DNA of 64,000 nucleotides, from the IMG/VR virus record IMGVR_UViG_3300035670_000127, positions 1 through 64,000 of that record, one strand, 5' to 3'. Below, one piece after another: positions 23,600 to 46,229 of the stretch. The translations under genes were made by a program, and so were the position numbers. The notes beneath the pieces are model-generated. The model was given only the letters and a program-made list of their open reading frames with translations. It was not told the origin of the DNA and made no database searches. Each line of letters opens with the position of its first letter. The stretch's first letter is position 1. Origin of the DNA: a virus.

Positions 23600-25007
23600 A
23601 TGAATCAAGAAACATTAGTATTTACCACCTCTCCTAAAAAAGAGGTTAAAGTTAATCGGCCGGCCGTGTATGAAGCGGGGCCGATAGGTGGAGTATTTCT
23701 ACTTAACCATGATAAGTCACCATTGATACCAGTCACCAATGACAGGGCGCGGTGGCTGTTAGATAACAAACAGGCCGCTGTTTATCGGCGCTATCCATTT
23801 ACTCTCATACTGAATAAGAGTCACCAATCCCTTGAACAAGCGTACCCAATCGAGTTCAAAGTTGACCCAGGTAGCAAAACAACTGGATTGGCTTTGGTTG
23901 CCTACATCGATGGAAAATATACCGTCATTTGGGCGGCGAATCTAAGGCATAGAGGTGATATTAAAAGTGGACTGGAATCCCGTCTGTCAATTCGACGTGG
24001 GAGACGCAACCGACATACTCGTTATCGCCCGGCGCGGTTTATGAATAGGGTAGGTTCTAAAAAGGAGGGTTGGTTAGCACTGTCATTGTTATCAAGGGTG
24101 CGTAACGTAGCCAACTGGTTAACGAAGCTAAGAAAGTACGTCCCCATCACTAGCGTCGCAGTGGAATCTGTGCGATTCGATATGCAAAAACTACGCAACC
24201 CAGAGATTAACGGGGTTGGCTATCAACAAGGCGAGTTAATGGGGTACGAGGTACGAGAGTATCTACTTGAAAAGTTTAATCGCAAGTGTGCTTATTGTGG
24301 AAAGGATGGCGTCAAAGAGAAGGGCGTCAAATTACAGATAGAACACGTCACCCCAAGGTCAAGAGGAGGCGCAGACTCAGTTTCCAACCTCGTCATTGCG
24401 TGTCAAAAATGCAATCAGAAAAAGGGGTCGCAGTCCATTGAGGAGTTTTTAGCAAGCCGCACCGACGACCTTAAAAAAAAATCAAGACCCAGTTAAAGAC
24501 ACCTTTGAAAGACGCGGCGGCGGTAAATGCAACCCGTTATAAAATTTTAGAGGTGTTGAAACAAAGCGGCCTACCAGTGACAGACTGGACTGGGGTGCGG
24601 ACGAAAATGAATCGCATTAAACAAGGCTACCCTAAAGACCATTGGATTGATGCCGTTTGTGTGGGTGAGACTGGGGAGGCTGTTAGCATCCCTGATTCTT
24701 TAAAACCATTGCAAATCAAGGCAATGGGGCGAGGCAATCGTTTAATGCAAAGCCATGATGCTTACGGGTTTCCTAATAAGAAACCTAATAACAAAGCCAA
24801 GCGAGTGCATGGGATACAGACGGGGATATAGTGGAAGTGGAAGGGGTAACCGGACGAGTATCTGCTATTTCAGTCAACTCGCACTCTGTCAGCATCCCAG
24901 TCGATGGTAAACGTAAATCCTTCTCTCTTAGAAAAAGAGAGGCTAAAATTATACAACGGACTGATGGGTATAAGTACGATAGAATTAAGCAAGTGCCCTT
25001 TTTGTAA
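23600..25007 (+). pseudogene. iscB: IscB (IS200/IS605 OMEGA RNA-guided nuclease) with two frameshifts
   Basis: PLMP-like PLIP..RARWLL..RRYPFT; RuvC-I VDPGSKTTG; bridge helix RRGRRNRHTRYRPARF; RuvC-II VESVRFDMQ; HNH EHVTPRSRGGADSVSNLVIACQKCN; RuvC-III HWIDA. Frame breaks occur at the A9 run (24473-24481) and the G4 run (24822-24825). The repaired frame reads ..KIKTQLKTPLKDAAAVN.. and ..QTGDIV..QRTDGYKY..stop at 25007. Confidence 0.9.
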
Positions 25008-30180: not shown

Positions 30181-30429
30181 TGTATAGACTGTATAGACTC
30201 TGTCATCAACCCCTAGACGGTGAAAACCCGCGCCGTTATTGGCTTGTATGGACTGTATAGGGCCAACGGGTGTTTTTTCCATTTACTTATATATCCGGCG
30301 ATATAAAATACTTTCTTCTATATTAATCATGTAATGTAGTGTATACACTCTATACAGTCCATACAAGCCTTTAAATTCGTGCCTTCCCGTTGTATAGGGT
30401 TTAAACAGGTACTCTATACACCCTATACA
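30181..30429. other. Putative replication origin: TGTAT(A/G)G iterons in inverted arms around an AT-rich core
   Basis: Iterons at 30181, 30190, 30245, 30254 and 30391 (forward) and 30350, 30359, 30414 and 30423 (reverse). A perfect 20-bp inverted repeat (30241-30260 / 30350-30369) flanks an 89-bp AT-rich spacer. The site lies just 3' of the D5 helicase gene. Confidence 0.75.
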
Positions 30430-30475
30430 GGTTTAAAGTAATGTTTTAAAGGGTTTGTTAATTGGTTTCTGTCTT

Positions 30476-32146
30476 TTATCCCTTCGCTTTCTCTTCTAAA
30501 ATCCCCAGCCAATCCGTAGTCCAGTTCCTCTCGTTTTCCATCAAATCCTGACATATCACCCGTGCGACTTTAACCGGGTGCGTAGCCAGTAATTTAGCGA
30601 CGTGGGATACCACTACCCCCTGCACCCCAGTGTGATATTCCATTGCCGTGCAAAGTTCCTCTGCCAGTTCTGCGATTGCCCCGTCAACTGATTCAGTCAC
30701 CTCACTACCCAACCCTTCGTTTTTAAATGCGTACTCTACAATTGAGTTTTCAGTGCCCTCTACTATCTTGAGTCCAATGAATCCCGACCTTGTCTTTTCG
30801 CCCGGCACCCTCATCTGCCTCTTTCTTTCTACACCGTCCACACCCAGAATGATGGTAATCACTTCCTCCAACTGAGTTGAAAAAGTATTGGTGCTAATCT
30901 GCCCCTTCCGCCCGTTTTGTTTGCACCAGCGAATGAAATTTGGATACAAATAGTTGTCTGCTAACTCAAACATATTCTCCGTACTCACACCCAAAGCACC
31001 GACTTGCACTCTCACTTCAGGTGAAAACTCGACGTTTTGAGATAACCAAGCGATAAGTGGGTTGGTTTCGATCAGGGTTGCCATTTTGGCATCTTGGGAG
31101 GATTTCACTAGGTGGTCGGTATTGCGTAATAGGCTCTCCATTCGGCTAACATCCATCCCCAATACCCAGTTCAGCAAGCCAGGTATCTCACCCTCAAAAT
31201 CCTCAGACAAATTACGCCGTTTTGAGGGGTGTACGACATGGTCAAGCCTCGCCGATATACGTCGCCGTGCAATTGCACTGGATGTATCTGAAAAATAAAT
31301 GGGTGCATTGGCCGCGATAACAACCATGCCAGTGAATGTAAACGCCTCGTCCTGCTGTTTATTTTTCACCTCCTTTCGCAGCTTATCCTGCCCAGTGAGT
31401 GATTTAAAAATGGAACCCTCCCCACCGTATTTGGATGCGTCATTAATCAGAACCAGTCTCTTACCTTGGATAGCCGCTGTCTCAAAACGGTTTTCTTCAA
31501 GGTATTTCATTGTGGTGATATAGTAATTGGGTTCGCCAATCATAGAGGTTAGCAATCGCGTTAACGTCCCTTTCCCTGACCCGCCTGGACCTACGATTTC
31601 CATATACCGTTGCAAGTCATACCGCCCCAATAACACGGCCAGAAAGAAGGCACGAATCAACTCTATCAACTCCTTATCCCCTTTCGTTGCTTCGAGTAAC
31701 CATTTATGAATGGTTGGGCACGTTGCATCCTTATTGAAATCGTAAGGCAACTGCCAGGTGATTCTATTCATAGGGTCGTGGGAGGGTGTAAATTCATGGG
31801 TGCGAATATTAAGAGTGCCATTAGGGAACGGTATGAGGTCAGGACATACTTCATTATCCCATTTATCAACGTAGAGGTCGCCCATCAGAAATTGGGTGAC
31901 ACCCTGTGCAAAATTAATACTAAAATCGGAGGTAAATCGTGAGTGGATAGCCTCCCGTATGATTTGCTGAATGTGGACTTTTTTAGCCTTGGTCCAAACG
32001 GCGTCTTGATACATCCGCCATTCGCCGGTATCTGAATCAAACGCGAGTGTGGAGGCGAAAGAGGGCGCTAATTGTCTAGCTATTTCGTTTTGGCTAGGCT
32101 TTCTAGGAGAAGCGGCAGGTTTGCCATTTTGTGACTTTTTAGACAT
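30476..32146 (-). CDS. D5/P4-alpha-type SF3 replicative helicase (no N-terminal primase domain)
   Basis: D5_N-like LIPFPNGTLNIRTHEF; Walker A GPGGSGKGT; Walker B LVLINDA; FKSLTGQD; motif C IAAN; AIARRRI; C-terminal wHTH-like LYPNFIRWCKQNG. Confidence 0.9.
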   Translation of the reverse strand: MSKKSQNGKPAASPRKPSQNEIARQLAPSFASTLAFDSDTGEWRMYQDAVWTKAKKVHIQQIIREAIHSRFTSDFSINFAQGVTQFLMGDLYVDKWDNEVCPDLIPFPNGTLNIRTHEFTPSHDPMNRITWQLPYDFNKDATCPTIHKWLLEATKGDKELIELIRAFFLAVLLGRYDLQRYMEIVGPGGSGKGTLTRLLTSMIGEPNYYITTMKYLEENRFETAAIQGKRLVLINDASKYGGEGSIFKSLTGQDKLRKEVKNKQQDEAFTFTGMVVIAANAPIYFSDTSSAIARRRISARLDHVVHPSKRRNLSEDFEGEIPGLLNWVLGMDVSRMESLLRNTDHLVKSSQDAKMATLIETNPLIAWLSQNVEFSPEVRVQVGALGVSTENMFELADNYLYPNFIRWCKQNGRKGQISTNTFSTQLEEVITIILGVDGVERKRQMRVPGEKTRSGFIGLKIVEGTENSIVEYAFKNEGLGSEVTESVDGAIAELAEELCTAMEYHTGVQGVVVSHVAKLLATHPVKVARVICQDLMENERNWTTDWLGILEEKAKG

Positions 32147-32248
32147 AATACTGTCCCTTTAGTTAAACTAAAAAATATGAAGGGCAGTATAAAGTATAAA
32201 TATGGAGGGGAGGGTACTAAATTTTTTTGAAAAAGTTTCAAAAAACGC

Positions 32249-32277
32249 TTGACAATTTAGAATTGTGTAGCTATACT
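32249..32277 (+). promoter_or_regulatory. Near-consensus sigma70 promoter for the antisense RNA
   Basis: TTGACA-17 nt-TATACT, with no ORF downstream on the + strand. Confidence 0.8.
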
Positions 32278-32283
32278 ATAGGT

Positions 32284-32396
32284 ATAGTCAATAAGAAAAG
32301 CTGATTTGCCCTTCAATCAAAAATCGGTTTTTCCTTTGACTACCCTCCTAGAACCTGACGCACTGCTTATGAAAGGAATTGCGTCAGGTTTTTTTT
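32284..32396 (+). ncRNA. Predicted ~110-nt counter-transcribed antisense RNA complementary to the helicase mRNA leader
   Basis: It has its own promoter, a long stem-loop (32285-32342, with G-U pairs favouring the + strand) and an AACCTGACGCA/TGCGTCAGGTT-U-rich terminator (32352-32396). Confidence 0.7.
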
Positions 32397-32410
32397 ATGC
32401 TTATGAACTT

Positions 32411-32439
32411 ATTATAGCATAAGTGAATCTGAAAGTCAA
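32411..32439 (-). promoter_or_regulatory. sigma70 promoter for the D5 helicase gene (~255-nt leader)
   Basis: Minus strand TTGACT-17 nt-TATAAT with a TGn extension. Confidence 0.8.
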
Positions 32440-32456
32440 GGTTTGGATTGCACAAT

Positions 32457-32495
32457 AAAAAAGCGGTTATAGCATGTCTGCTTAATCGCTTTTTT
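32457..32495. terminator. Terminator after the WD40 gene
   Basis: AAAAAAGCGGTTA..TAATCGCTTTTTT; it insulates the helicase promoter. Confidence 0.65.
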
Positions 32496-32499
32496 ACCA

Positions 32500-33468
32500 T
32501 TATTTAATCCTACCCTTTAACCCCGTCAACTTCGGTATAATCCGAAGTCTAACCTCCCCCGTTTCCACATCCCAAATGCGCACGGTTCTATCCCATGAAC
32601 CCGATGCGACGGATTTACCGTCCGGACTGAATGCCACCGAGGTCACCCAGTCACTGTGGCCTGTCAGGGTGTGAATCAATTGCCCGTCCTGAACTTCCCA
32701 AATCCGTACCGTTTTATCGTAGGAAGCGGAGGCAACTAATTCTCCATTTGGACTGAATGCGACTGAGGTGACGATGTCGGTATGACCTTGCAATTCAATT
32801 TCTATATTCTCTTGCGAGAATAGACGAACCGTGTTATCTGTACAACCCATTGCCAGAATACCATAGCAATTGAATGCAAGGGAGGTGGCATACCCAGTCA
32901 CATTGTAATTAAGAATCCGATACTCTTTTTCGACATCCCATACGGAAACCACACCGTTCCTTGATGCCGACACGAGTCTATTGCCGCTGTTATTAAATGC
33001 CACCGCCGCCACACCGACGTCGTGTCCTTTTAACTCAGTTACCTCGTCCGTAATGAGATTCCATAATTTCAAATTATGAACTGCGTTATCGACCCCGATG
33101 GCAACCACCTTGTTATCCGGACTGAATGCGACGCTTGTGATTCCACAAGGATAGCCTTCTTCTTCCACTCGAATGGGAATGGGTGTTACGCAAAATTTGG
33201 TTAGGTACTTCCCGTCTCTGTCCCGAAGCATCACGGTATTATCTCTTGACCCGCTGGCAATAATACCTAGACCATTAATAGCAATTGCCTCAATTGTAGA
33301 GTGATGACCGTCCATTTGCTGAATTATGTCGCCACTATTTATGTCGAATACACGGATTAGGCCGTCATTGCAACCAGCGACTAATTGGGAGTAAGCATTG
33401 AAGGTAATCGAGTTAATTCTATGAGTTTCACTTTCATAGAATGGTAGTCTGCATATATTGTGTGTCAT
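32500..33468 (-). CDS. WD40-repeat beta-propeller protein
   Basis: About seven GH..V.SVAFSP.G..LASAS.D.TVRIW[DE] repeats. Confidence 0.92.
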   Translation of the reverse strand: MTHNICRLPFYESETHRINSITFNAYSQLVAGCNDGLIRVFDINSGDIIQQMDGHHSTIEAIAINGLGIIASGSRDNTVMLRDRDGKYLTKFCVTPIPIRVEEEGYPCGITSVAFSPDNKVVAIGVDNAVHNLKLWNLITDEVTELKGHDVGVAAVAFNNSGNRLVSASRNGVVSVWDVEKEYRILNYNVTGYATSLAFNCYGILAMGCTDNTVRLFSQENIEIELQGHTDIVTSVAFSPNGELVASASYDKTVRIWEVQDGQLIHTLTGHSDWVTSVAFSPDGKSVASGSWDRTVRIWDVETGEVRLRIIPKLTGLKGRIK

Positions 33469-37018: not shown

Positions 37019-37408
37019 TCAATCTTGGTCGTTATCTTTACCCAATCCCCATGCGTTAGCTTCGGTAAGTATGTCATGCAATTTCAGCAACTCATCAGGT
37101 GTGAACCTCCTTATTAGGAATCCTTTTGTTTTCGATATAGCCCGCCGTTGCCGATTTTCAGATTCAACTTCGTCGGCGAGTTCCTTTGTATAAGGAGTTG
37201 CCGAATAACTCCATGAGTCAGAAGTTCCACCTCCTTTTTCGTCACCATTATCTTTTCTAAACCGTGTCTGTGTTCCATGATAATCCACATCAAAGAAATG
37301 TGGTGTAATATGAATAACATTAGATACTGTTCTAAGACTGATGTAATTGCCGTAAGCGGTAACTATCACCTTGTCACCAACTGACACGCTCTCAAATTTA
37401 CGTTCCAT
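37019..37408 (-). CDS. Hypothetical phage protein (paralogue of 36593-37009)
   Basis: Same shared pattern as 36593-37009. Confidence 0.7.
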   Translation of the reverse strand: MERKFESVSVGDKVIVTAYGNYISLRTVSNVIHITPHFFDVDYHGTQTRFRKDNGDEKGGGTSDSWSYSATPYTKELADEVESENRQRRAISKTKGFLIRRFTPDELLKLHDILTEANAWGLGKDNDQD

Positions 37409-40606: not shown

Positions 40607-40640
40607 AAAATCCTCTTTAAAATGAAACGGTTACGGGAGG

Positions 40641-40800
40641 TTGACACAAATTGCGTTAGTTTGTGTTCGGTTGACACAGGTTGACACAGTTTGACGCAAT
40701 CTGCTATTATTTTACACAAGTTGATACAGTTTAACACAATTTGTGTCAACCTGTGTTAATTTAGCACAAATTGACGCAATCTGTGTCAACTTGTGTAAAG
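40641..40800. repeat. parC-like centromere: ~16 phased 10-bp units of TTGACACA or its inverse
   Basis: Exact 10-bp periodicity (ttgacacaaa, ttgacacagg, ttgacacagt, ttgacgcaat, ttgatacagt, ttgtgtcaac, ctgtgtcaac and others), directly upstream of the actin-like ATPase. Confidence 0.8.
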
Positions 40801-40854
40801 TATCGTATAAAAATTTTTACCTGTCAAGGTATATTAAAAAGAGGGTTTATAAAC

Positions 40855-42009
40855 ATGCAGAATTTATCTGAAATATTACTACATGGAATCACCAACGGGT
40901 TAAGAAAACCGAATATTGTTTTCGGAGGCGTCGACGCTGGGAATGGTTATTCAAAGGGGCTGTTTTACGTTTTAGTAAACAACCGCTATCAGGTGGTTGA
41001 AGTATGTATCCCATCGATAGTCGCCGCGGGTCGAATCGAGACTAATCCGTTCCTTGCTAGTAATGAGGGGATTCAAGAGAAGCTATTGCAACTAACCAGC
41101 GGTGATGGCCTCCCTTTCACAGTGGCAATGGACATGTCCGTCGATGCAAACAAAATGAATGCGCTACCAACTGGAGGAGATGTGTATCAATCCTCTATCG
41201 CACGAGGCGCATTGGTTCACGCCGTTATTACGAAAGCATTGACTAGCATCGATGCTAATTTTGGAGGTCAGGAAATCACCTGCTATTTAGCGGGTACGAC
41301 CATGGCGAGTAACTATTGGGTGGATAATGGTTTGCAAAAAAATCAGCAACGAATCGCAGAGGTTGCCGCGGCTATTGGGTCTCCTTTCAGTACCTCTAAT
41401 CAGTACCCAATTATCAATATTGCCCGTACCGAGGTCTTTGGAGAGACTTTGGCCGCAATGTTATCTGTTACCATCGATGAGAATGGAAACAATAACGGGG
41501 AGTATGCAGATGGTAGTGAAATTGTCTTTGTTGACGTCGGACATACGGACACTGTGATTTTGGTTGCGGAGATTAAAAACGGTCTCCCAAACATTATCAA
41601 ACGTCAATCTATCCGAATGGGGATAGGTAGTGGTGTGTTAGAGGTCGTAGCGCATCGCGTCGGACATGTCACCGAAAAACCAGTATCCGCCGAACTAGGT
41701 TTATTATCTCGTCCTTCGGTAAAACATCGTGGCCGGACGATAGATTTGCTTCCCTTCCAAAAGGAGGCAATGAACGGGTTAAGTCAACAAGTGCTAGGCT
41801 ACATATCCAAAGCGATAGGTAGGGGTGATGATTTTGATGCGACTTACTTGGTCGGCGGTTTCCCACAAGTCGCCATCAAGTTATTCGGGCCGGGTTACTT
41901 TACCAATTACGGGCAGATACATAACTTGCAAGTGCCCGACCTGCCCATCTATGCCAACGCACGGGGCGCATTGCGGGGGCTCATTAAACGAATTATCAAC
42001 AAGAGGTAG
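40855..42009 (+). CDS. parM: ParM/StbA-family actin-like partition ATPase
   Basis: Phosphate-1 GVDAGNGYSK; phosphate-2 FVDVGHTDT; adenosine YLVGG; connect-2 YANARG. ATG 40855 has a GAGGG RBS. Confidence 0.85.
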   Translation: MQNLSEILLHGITNGLRKPNIVFGGVDAGNGYSKGLFYVLVNNRYQVVEVCIPSIVAAGRIETNPFLASNEGIQEKLLQLTSGDGLPFTVAMDMSVDANKMNALPTGGDVYQSSIARGALVHAVITKALTSIDANFGGQEITCYLAGTTMASNYWVDNGLQKNQQRIAEVAAAIGSPFSTSNQYPIINIARTEVFGETLAAMLSVTIDENGNNNGEYADGSEIVFVDVGHTDTVILVAEIKNGLPNIIKRQSIRMGIGSGVLEVVAHRVGHVTEKPVSAELGLLSRPSVKHRGRTIDLLPFQKEAMNGLSQQVLGYISKAIGRGDDFDATYLVGGFPQVAIKLFGPGYFTNYGQIHNLQVPDLPIYANARGALRGLIKRIINKR

Positions 42010-45742: not shown

Positions 45743-46138
45743 TTACCGAGATGCCATGCAAGCCGCATCCGAGTTCCTGTGAGCTTTTCTTATGAGACCC
45801 ATCGTTTTGGAATTTTTTGGGAGTGGTGATAAAACGAAGTTGCCTTCGTGCGTCATCACCTCCAATACCTCCTTCTCTTTCACCGTCTTTGTAATCCCGT
45901 TGCCTTCGTAATAGGTTTGCCAAGTCACTCGGCAACCTTCATAGGTATCCCCAGATACAAACCCAAACCCACATTCACCCGACAAGATAATCCATGCCAC
46001 CGTTCTGGCGGTTTTTTCAGATACGGTGACTCCTTGTTTTCTTGATTCTCTCAAGATACTTCTAACGTAAACTTGAGTTGCTTCCTTAGAGTAAGAGGCG
46101 GATTGTTCTGCTAATGTTTCTGCTAGTGAGTATTTCAT
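45743..46138 (-). CDS. Hypothetical protein (MKYSLAET...)
   Basis: AAGGTG RBS before ATG 46138. The track start at 46180 lies inside the ribozyme. Confidence 0.65.
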   Translation of the reverse strand: MKYSLAETLAEQSASYSKEATQVYVRSILRESRKQGVTVSEKTARTVAWIILSGECGFGFVSGDTYEGCRVTWQTYYEGNGITKTVKEKEVLEVMTHEGNFVLSPLPKNSKTMGLIRKAHRNSDAACMASR

Positions 46139-46162
46139 GTAACACCTTGTTAATTTTTGAGG

Positions 46163-46229
46163 TAGCTGCCTCGTCAGCACCGGGAGTCAATTCTCGGTGG
46201 ACTCCCCAAACATCGGGGAGTTTCGGCTA
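46163..46229 (-). ncRNA. Type II hammerhead ribozyme
   Basis: Minus strand: GCC-GAAA-CUCCCC(loop)GGGGAG-UC-CACCGAGA(loop)..CGGUG-CUGACGA-GGC. The complete core is present (CUGANGA, GAAA, GUC cleavage triplet). Predicted cut between 46200 and 46199. Confidence 0.88.

Follow-up and report, generated by a model that had tools for sequence, protein, structure and literature searches.

We analysed a stretch of viral DNA of 64,000 nucleotides (nt), here called the window, which is the first 64 kb of the 81,363-bp IMG/VR record IMGVR_UViG_3300035670_000127 (linear, 92% complete). Our subject is the 353-bp spacer that runs from a WD40-repeat gene (32500-33468, minus strand) to a helicase gene (30476..32146, minus strand; start codon 32146-32144) and that holds the locus of a putative RNA switch. 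The helicase, a P4-family protein of 556 amino acids (aa), begins with a D5_N domain (7.5e-17) and also carries a DUF5906 domain (1.2e-14). Scored against TIGR01613, the model of the C-terminal (helicase) domain of P4-family primases, it exceeds the curated cut-off (141.2 vs 108.7 bits); it also matches the structure 7ola_A with E = 1.4e-14. A domain search found no N-terminal primase domain in the 556-aa protein, and its plasmid relatives have an extra N-terminal 270-330 aa. Among complete replicons, the closest relatives of the helicase are the DUF3854/P4-family replication genes of cyanobacterial plasmids (33-38% identity), and for this reason the host is very probably a cyanobacterium.

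Convergent promoters, predicted antisense RNA and helicase leader

An initial annotation of the window, made from the letters alone, had proposed that an antisense RNA and a pseudoknot control the translation of the helicase in the manner of IncI/IncB plasmids. The two convergent, near-consensus promoters on which it was built are present, each with an 11/12 match. The helicase mRNA promoter on the minus strand (32439..32411) consists of TTGACT, a 17-nt spacer and a TG-extended TATAAT, with a predicted start at ~32404, and the antisense RNA promoter on the plus strand (32249..32277) consists of TTGACA, a 17-nt spacer and TATACT, with a predicted start at ~32284. In a promoter scan these are the two best sites within 2.5 kb, far above the remainder.

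The plus-strand promoter would drive the synthesis of an antisense RNA of ~112 nt (32284..32396, plus strand). All the sequence features of the ~110-nt RNA that had been described, without an open reading frame (ORF) and with its own terminator, could be located: no credible ORF preceded by a Shine-Dalgarno (SD) sequence was found in it, and its predicted fold has two hairpins (-40.4 kcal/mol, z = -7.4; 0 of 200 shuffles folded as well). Stem-loop 1 (32285..32342, plus strand) displays a 13-nt apical loop (32308-32320) that bears a copy of the anti-SD sequence defined below, and the predicted intrinsic terminator (32352..32396, plus strand) has an 11-bp perfect stem (arms 32352-32362/32380-32390), a 17-nt loop and eight T's. 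The terminator scanner missed this terminator because of the 17-nt length of its loop. In the sense RNA the same region is a 5' hairpin without a U tail. The antisense RNA is complementary to leader positions ~9-121, and the complementarity to the helicase leader claimed at the outset holds as a perfect duplex of ~113 bp. Its search against Rfam gave no match at E up to 10 beyond chance-level hits, and a genome-wide search for a target of the antisense loop in trans gave nothing convincing, with 9-mer matches at chance level.

The predicted leader of the helicase mRNA (32147..32404, minus strand) is ~258 nt long, close to the ~255 nt given before, and untranslated, with a minimum free energy (MFE) of -70.7 kcal/mol (z = -5.7). 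Within it we distinguish three segments of the minus strand, namely the SD region C (32148..32159), the anti-SD strand B (32178..32190), which closes C, and the putative activator A (32307..32315), an anti-anti-SD segment, complementary to B, which the antisense RNA overlaps. The pairing of 32190..32180 with 32159..32148 gives an SD hairpin of 11 bp with one bulged A (-11.9 kcal/mol, z = -3.2), which is present in both the MFE and the centroid structures. The ribosome-binding site and the start region had both been described as sequestered; the SD is indeed paired with 32180-32190, but the hairpin reaches from the SD to position -2 and the AUG itself lies outside it.

The 9-nt complementarity between A and the strand that occludes the ribosome-binding site proved to be perfect (32315..32307 with 32186..32178), and it exceeds in length all other long-range matches into the anti-SD zone. 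By itself this match is only suggestive, and it becomes significant because of the leaders of the relatives described below. In the nascent sense RNA, A is predicted to be mostly unpaired (P 0.5-0.87), in the apical loop of the target stem-loop, so that A:B would be a pseudoknot. The predicted energies of the two competing helices are comparable, at about -14.5 kcal/mol for the 9-bp A:B duplex vs -11.9 kcal/mol for the SD hairpin. A second long-range helix of 8 bp joins 32348..32341 (5' arm, minus strand), which also lies under the antisense RNA, to 32216..32209 (3' arm, minus strand) inside a CCUCC-rich tract (GGAGGGUA with UACCCUCC). RNAduplex runs across wide zones returned long messy duplexes with uninformative z-scores.

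Relatives and natural variants

Profile-based searches yielded the relatives L002 (the same as L004) and L003 (close to L006), with helicases 53-55% identical, and we compared their leaders with that of the window. The helicases P0003-P0010 (89-90% and 49-55% identical) lie outside the covariation set, and a further relative is a 91% identical fragment without the leader. Two promoter-pattern scans of viral contigs returned the three known records only; the other 101 loci were chance matches, none with the helicase. A blastn search of phage genomes gave no match and a single-protein locus search found no loci.

The layout of the spacer recurs in both relatives. Each has only two promoter-like sites, a sense TTGACT-17-(TG)NATAAT and an antisense TTGACA-17-TATACT, at a spacing like that of the window, and each has an antisense terminator in the same place just past the sense start, formed by a hairpin of entirely different sequence and seven T's. 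The long-range complement of greatest length is A:B in each of the three leaders (9 bp in the window, 15 bp in L002, 12 bp in L003), and shuffles reached the length found in the relatives in 0/3000 (L002) and 3/3000 (L003) cases. In L002 and L003 as well, A is inside the region covered by the antisense RNA and B is the SD-occluding strand, and the distance from the 3' end of B to the AUG is 28-35 nt in 3 of 3 lineages. The SD hairpin, too, is predicted in all three (-10.3 and -13.6 kcal/mol in the relatives), and those of the relatives contain G-U pairs and bulges, which favours pairing at the RNA level.

The covariation among homologous leaders that the initial annotation had named as a check was found, together with the layout, in these two diverged lineages. 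Between L002 and L003, A:B shows three double changes (C-G to U-A, G-C to A-U and C-G to A-U), all 12 shared pairs remain intact, and one residue of B that changes from G to A is still paired in both A:B and B:C. The register of the helix also differs, the A of the window pairing with the 3' part of B and that of the relatives with the 5' part, implying that the helix was rebuilt rather than simply inherited, and that it kept overlapping the anti-SD.

The relatives differ from the window in the topology of the pairing. Their A segment lies in a single-stranded linker and A:B is a nested long-range helix with no loop pseudoknot. The pseudoknot of the initial annotation would be particular to the window lineage, whose A has a 9-bp complement and is predicted to sit in a loop of the nascent RNA. 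In the MFE structures of the free L002 and L003 leaders, A:B is formed and the SD is accessible. Once the stretch under the antisense RNA is masked, B folds onto the SD, and the energy needed to open the SD climbs from 1.7 to 7.2 kcal/mol in L002 and from 7.0 to 13.3 kcal/mol in L003, a predicted shift from an ON to an OFF state.

Natural variants that are ~95% identical to the window were found in contigs from four metagenomes of four studies. They carry about a dozen substitutions and several indels in the leader, with 0 changes in A, B, C, the antisense terminator or the sense promoter, and their antisense -10 element is the consensus TATAAT (32276 C>A). Stem-loop 1 of a variant has 2 deletions and 2 substitutions, as well as a TC insertion at its 3' edge, and retains its fold and its loop; the two 1-nt deletions are on opposite sides of the internal loop. 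When refolded, the variant antisense RNA gave the same two hairpins with the same apical loop (-39.2 vs -40.4 kcal/mol). In the second long-range helix, the TC insertion moves the pairing to the adjacent CCUCC repeat and 8 bp are kept.

Positions 32223-32245, directly upstream of the antisense -35 element, form an AT-only 10-bp inverted repeat, which the natural variants keep via a shifted register. L002 and L003 have phased AGATTTTT repeats where the window has this inverted repeat. It may be a UP-like element.

A proposed translational relay and competing explanations

We consider it reasonably likely that the helicase mRNA is controlled by an antisense-dependent translational relay. The in silico support for it consists of the sequence elements, their conservation and covariation, and the energy shift predicted for the relatives; that both RNAs are synthesized, that the pseudoknot forms and that copy number responds is what we infer. 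In this proposal, a constitutive cis-antisense RNA of ~112 nt would set the level of helicase translation. The leader would be laid out with the SD (C), B ~20 nt upstream of it, and the SD-like activator A, which can also pair with B, ~120 nt further upstream. As long as A is free when B is transcribed, A:B would form and the SD would stay open (ON), with A:B taking the form of a loop-to-tail pseudoknot in the window phage and of a plain long-range helix in the relatives. If the antisense RNA, whose loop or linker would have the same sequence as B, is already on A, then B would fold onto the SD and translation would be blocked (OFF). It is plausible that A:B formation and antisense binding race each other during transcription. 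Because the dosage of the antisense RNA tracks gene dosage, the relay would exert negative feedback on the copy number of the replicon, which suits a plasmid-like prophage state. The core of the logic first put forward is supported, namely an activator, overlapped by the antisense RNA, that vies with the SD for pairing to B; the leader-peptide coupling of IncI-alpha/IncB is missing, and the relatives do not share the pseudoknot.

Several observations weigh against the proposed relay. The length of the window A:B match was reached in 69/3000 dinucleotide shuffles (p ~0.02 if this match is taken alone). The position of A at a loop agrees with the antisense loop 32308-32320 and with the mostly unpaired A of the nascent RNA, but the full-length nested MFE structure puts A into a small local hairpin; the second long-range helix, moreover, crosses A:B. 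Nested folding predicts a closed SD for the window both with the masking and without it (10.7 vs 9.4 kcal/mol), because such folding cannot score a pseudoknot; the switch of the window would rest on this pseudoknot, which we presume to form. The comparison covers three independent lineages, a small number, and the phage, whose record is linear and 92% complete, may have a plasmid-prophage or a purely lytic lifestyle.

The surroundings of the switch bear on this lifestyle. The helicase gene is directly followed by an array (30181..30430) of TGTATAG-type iterons lying in both orientations, a candidate origin, and iterons sharing the TGTATAG(G) core (TGTATAGG) follow the helicase gene in L002 (4775-5072) and L003 (4703-5073) as well. 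About 8 kb from the switch lies an actin-like gene (40771-42009, plus strand; MreB-like_C 3e-7), preceded at 40631-40780 by about a dozen TTGACACAG-like units, phased at 10 bp and present in both orientations; a homologue of the gene is present in 3 of 3 relative records at 47% identity. The repeat array and the gene together look like a type II partition locus. The StbA_N (ParM) model had no match here nor in any control genome, so its absence is uninformative. No tyrosine or serine recombinase (resolvase) and no rve transposase was found in this record, and no tyrosine integrase in the records of the relatives. Judging from this context (iterons, actin-like gene, no integrase), the phage probably also lives as a plasmid, and copy-number control of a phage-plasmid would be the most natural role of the switch.

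The same switch might instead time the helicase or limit its dose during lytic growth, in a phage with no plasmid prophage state. We regard this as unlikely, though as a possibility to be taken seriously. The phage has a full replication set of the lytic type (clamp, DnaG-like primase, SSB, ribonucleotide reductase, exonuclease and a Rad52-like protein), no repressor was identified, and all the records are linear; the iterons, the actin-like gene behind phased repeats and the lack of an integrase, all of them conserved in the relatives, speak for a plasmid state, as does the finding that the closest cellular homologues of the helicase are replication genes of cyanobacterial plasmids. A different explanation leaves the relay aside and has the antisense RNA act mainly via duplex-triggered cleavage (RNase III/RNase E) or transcriptional interference, A:B being merely structural or stabilizing. 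The start sites converge at a distance of ~120 nt, the duplex overlap of ~113 bp is perfect, and RNase E processing is central to the antisense control of the cyanobacterial plasmid pSYSA (PMC9978351). However, the antisense terminator stops ~8 nt short of the sense start, which limits collision, masking alone predicts SD closure in the relatives, and the specific match of A to the anti-SD strand, with which it covaries, would be left unexplained; we consider this mode of action improbable.

That A and B, as inverted repeats, serve at the level of DNA, for instance as operators bound by a regulator or by the helicase itself, appears very improbable to us. Inverted repeats alone do not separate RNA from DNA function, and an 11-nt inverted pair before the plasmid homologues of Nostocales is conserved without covariation, but the repeats are wholly different in sequence and length between the lineages (9, 15 and 12 nt) while retaining the overlap with the anti-SD, the B:C helix has G-U pairs and bulges, and the repeats are unrelated to the TGTATAG iterons. 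It is hardly credible, finally, that the promoter-like and hairpin motifs are the work of chance in an AT-rich spacer without regulatory function. Consensus scans do yield false positives, with an average of 4.9 promoter-like hits in shuffles of the region, and the 9-nt match alone has the modest p value given above; against this stand a layout conserved at 53-55% helicase identity, compensatory changes, strong fold z-scores and the invariance of the elements in natural variants.

Known control systems and the wider replicon

In IncI-alpha (ColIb-P9) and IncB/IncK/IncL-M plasmids, of which IncI-alpha, IncB and IncK make up the I-complex, Inc RNA or RNAI controls repZ or repA via a pseudoknot; the antisense RNA of these plasmids blocks a leader peptide and prevents the pseudoknot that is needed for Rep translation (Asano & Mizobuchi 1998 and Praszkier & Pittard 2002, summarized in PMC8053102 and PMC10724649). 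By its elements, the phage switch would be mechanistically closest to these plasmids, yet outside their family. As in the I-complex, a predicted cis-antisense RNA is complementary to an upstream stem-loop of the initiator leader, and antisense binding and activator pairing would compete for one site. A target loop that could also pair beside the occluded ribosome-binding site is predicted for the nascent RNA of the window, whereas the full-length MFE structure puts A into a local hairpin and the relatives have the nested form. Unlike the I-complex with its repY/repB leader peptide, 3 of 3 lineages have no conserved leader ORF preceded by an SD, and translational coupling of the IncI-alpha/IncB type is therefore absent. 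The two also differ in the antisense RNA, that of the phage being ~112 nt long with a second hairpin of its own and a loop (32308-32320) without the conserved I-complex hexanucleotide UUGGCG; in the activator helix, which is nested and forms no pseudoknot in the sister lineages; and in the controlled gene, a cyanophage P4-family superfamily 3 (SF3) helicase instead of an IncFII-type RepA/RepZ. There is no sequence or Rfam similarity between the two.

The P4 satellite phage, whose alpha primase-helicase operon is under the control of the CI immunity RNA, offers a second comparison. CI RNA is processed from the sense leader and brings about premature termination at seqA/seqC, iterons are bound by the helicase C-terminal domain, and the related C4 antisense RNA family of P1/P7 is represented in Rfam as RF01695. 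The phage locus shares with P4 the TIGR01613 protein family and a small RNA that would pair with the leader of a replication operon. Unlike CI, the phage RNA would be a genuine antisense transcript, with a promoter and a terminator to itself, and is predicted to act on translation, and the covariance model of the C4/CI family (RF01695) had no match. In the IncQ plasmids R1162/RSF1010, Kim and Meyer reportedly described in 1986 a 75-nt countertranscript that limits the replication genes, including that of the helicase, and so controls copy number. The IncQ countertranscript pairs directly at the translation-initiation region; unlike the arrangement proposed here, it has no activator/anti-SD relay, and the IncQ helicase is from a different superfamily. 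We also looked for attenuation of the pT181/pIP501 type and found no sense-leader hairpin with a U-run in the window, L002 or L003. As there is no sense-strand terminator after the antisense target, countertranscript-driven attenuation was ruled out.

Closer in its biological setting is pSYSA of Synechocystis 6803, which makes an abundant ~150-nt asRNA1 at ssr7036, upstream of the gene for CyRepA1 (Slr7037), a protein with primase and helicase domains (PMC9978351). Both are cyanobacterial replicons with an antisense RNA, a predicted one in the phage, just upstream of a replication gene of the primase-helicase type. The pSYSA RNA overlaps a small coding gene, whereas the phage has no small ORF there and its RNA would target the helicase's own leader; the model for pSYSA is ColE1-like primer control with RNase E processing, and no triad of SD, anti-SD and activator is described for it (PMC9978351). 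By domain content, the cyanobacterial DUF3854/P4-family plasmid relatives of the helicase may be of the CyRepA kind. The novelty that the initial annotation saw in the combination needs to be narrowed accordingly to the relay: because of pSYSA, an antisense RNA beside a P4-family replication gene is not unprecedented (PMC9978351), while the literature searched yielded no activator/anti-SD relay, whether on a gene of this kind or in a phage. Nor did searches for antisense RNAs acting on N15 repA or in phage-plasmids turn up anything usable.

Some cyanobacterial plasmids gave leads of their own. In 14 aligned Nostocales loci (alignment A3) and in plasmid6 of Calothrix brevissima NIES-22 (L030, 2040-2185), the leaders of DUF3854/P4-family genes are highly conserved. 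They contain an 11-nt hairpin-loop segment complementary to a segment 28 nt before the start, which overlaps the 5' arm of an SD-occluding hairpin, and a conserved minus-strand promoter-like site, TTGCAA-18-TAnnAT, lies between the two segments. Two single mismatches and one G-U pair occur in the pairing, which shows no covariation, and no sense promoter could be assigned; that these leaders follow the same design is a lead and not a finding. The SD of a 'primase P4' gene in plasmid3 of Chondrocystis sp. NIES-4102 (L164, ~1463-1509) lies within a perfect 9-bp hairpin, and a Rippkaea plasmid (L163) has an antisense promoter-like TTGACA-16-TATCGT 80 nt before the start of its P4-family gene. The Rivularia/Calothrix/Richelia plasmids (L038 group) were rejected as homologues of the switch: their apparent 10-nt A:B pair lies in a 17-nt insertion that is absent from half of the members, and it is also upstream of the only plus-strand promoter-like site.

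Upstream of the switch, a terminator-like hairpin that closes the WD40 gene (32450..32497, minus strand; -18.2 kcal/mol, z = -4.6) keeps this gene and the promoter of the helicase apart. A contig from one freshwater metagenome has 346 other letters in place of 31 nt near the WD40 gene's 3' end (32507-32539), and the gene upstream of the helicase is also different in L002 and L003. Because of these two differences, the replication cassette appears to be a separable module.

The rest of the record is that of a phage, with terminase, head protease/minor head protein and tail lysozyme genes, and the replication set of the phage itself also includes a PIF1 helicase; its separate DnaG-like primase gene is at genome position 75949-76953. 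One quarter of the genome is taken up by a single ORF of 7052 aa (1528-22686, minus strand). A type II hammerhead ribozyme (46160-46228, minus strand; 48.6 bits vs a Rfam gathering score of 37, E = 6.5e-7) lies near the start of a 145-aa ORF (45743-46180), and a 298-aa protein (23600-24496, plus strand) has a strong HNH endonuclease match (phrog_2214, 2e-74). On the strand of the helicase gene and 5 kb from the antisense locus, a 129-aa protein (37019-37408, minus strand) matches Pfam Phage_ProQ_C_like (31.8 bits vs a cut-off of 27). ProQ/FinO proteins aid antisense control in some plasmids (PMC8053102), and a link between this protein and the antisense locus is speculation.

The proposed cassette would comprise a strong antisense promoter, an activator, an anti-SD, an SD, a primase-less P4-family helicase and iterons, near an actin-like partition locus. 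We raise it as a tentative idea, which we think has less than an even chance, that this cassette defines an undescribed group of cyanobacterial phage-plasmids whose copy number is set by an RNA relay with an origin independent of the enterobacterial I-complex system. The SD-occluding leaders with antisense promoters before CyRepA-type genes of Nostocales hint that the design may be widespread in cyanobacterial replicons. If true, the cassette would be a compact, sequence-programmable module for incompatibility and copy number with three natural specificities, of possible use in cyanobacterial vectors, and the three natural versions ease tests by compensatory mutation. It would also lend weight to the view that phage-plasmids occur in filamentous cyanobacteria, a group in which the control of replication has hardly been explored. 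Copy control by an antisense RNA set against a translational activator would then have evolved convergently outside the enterobacterial plasmids, on an SF3 helicase, and would work without the leader-peptide coupling that has been deemed integral to the I-complex design.

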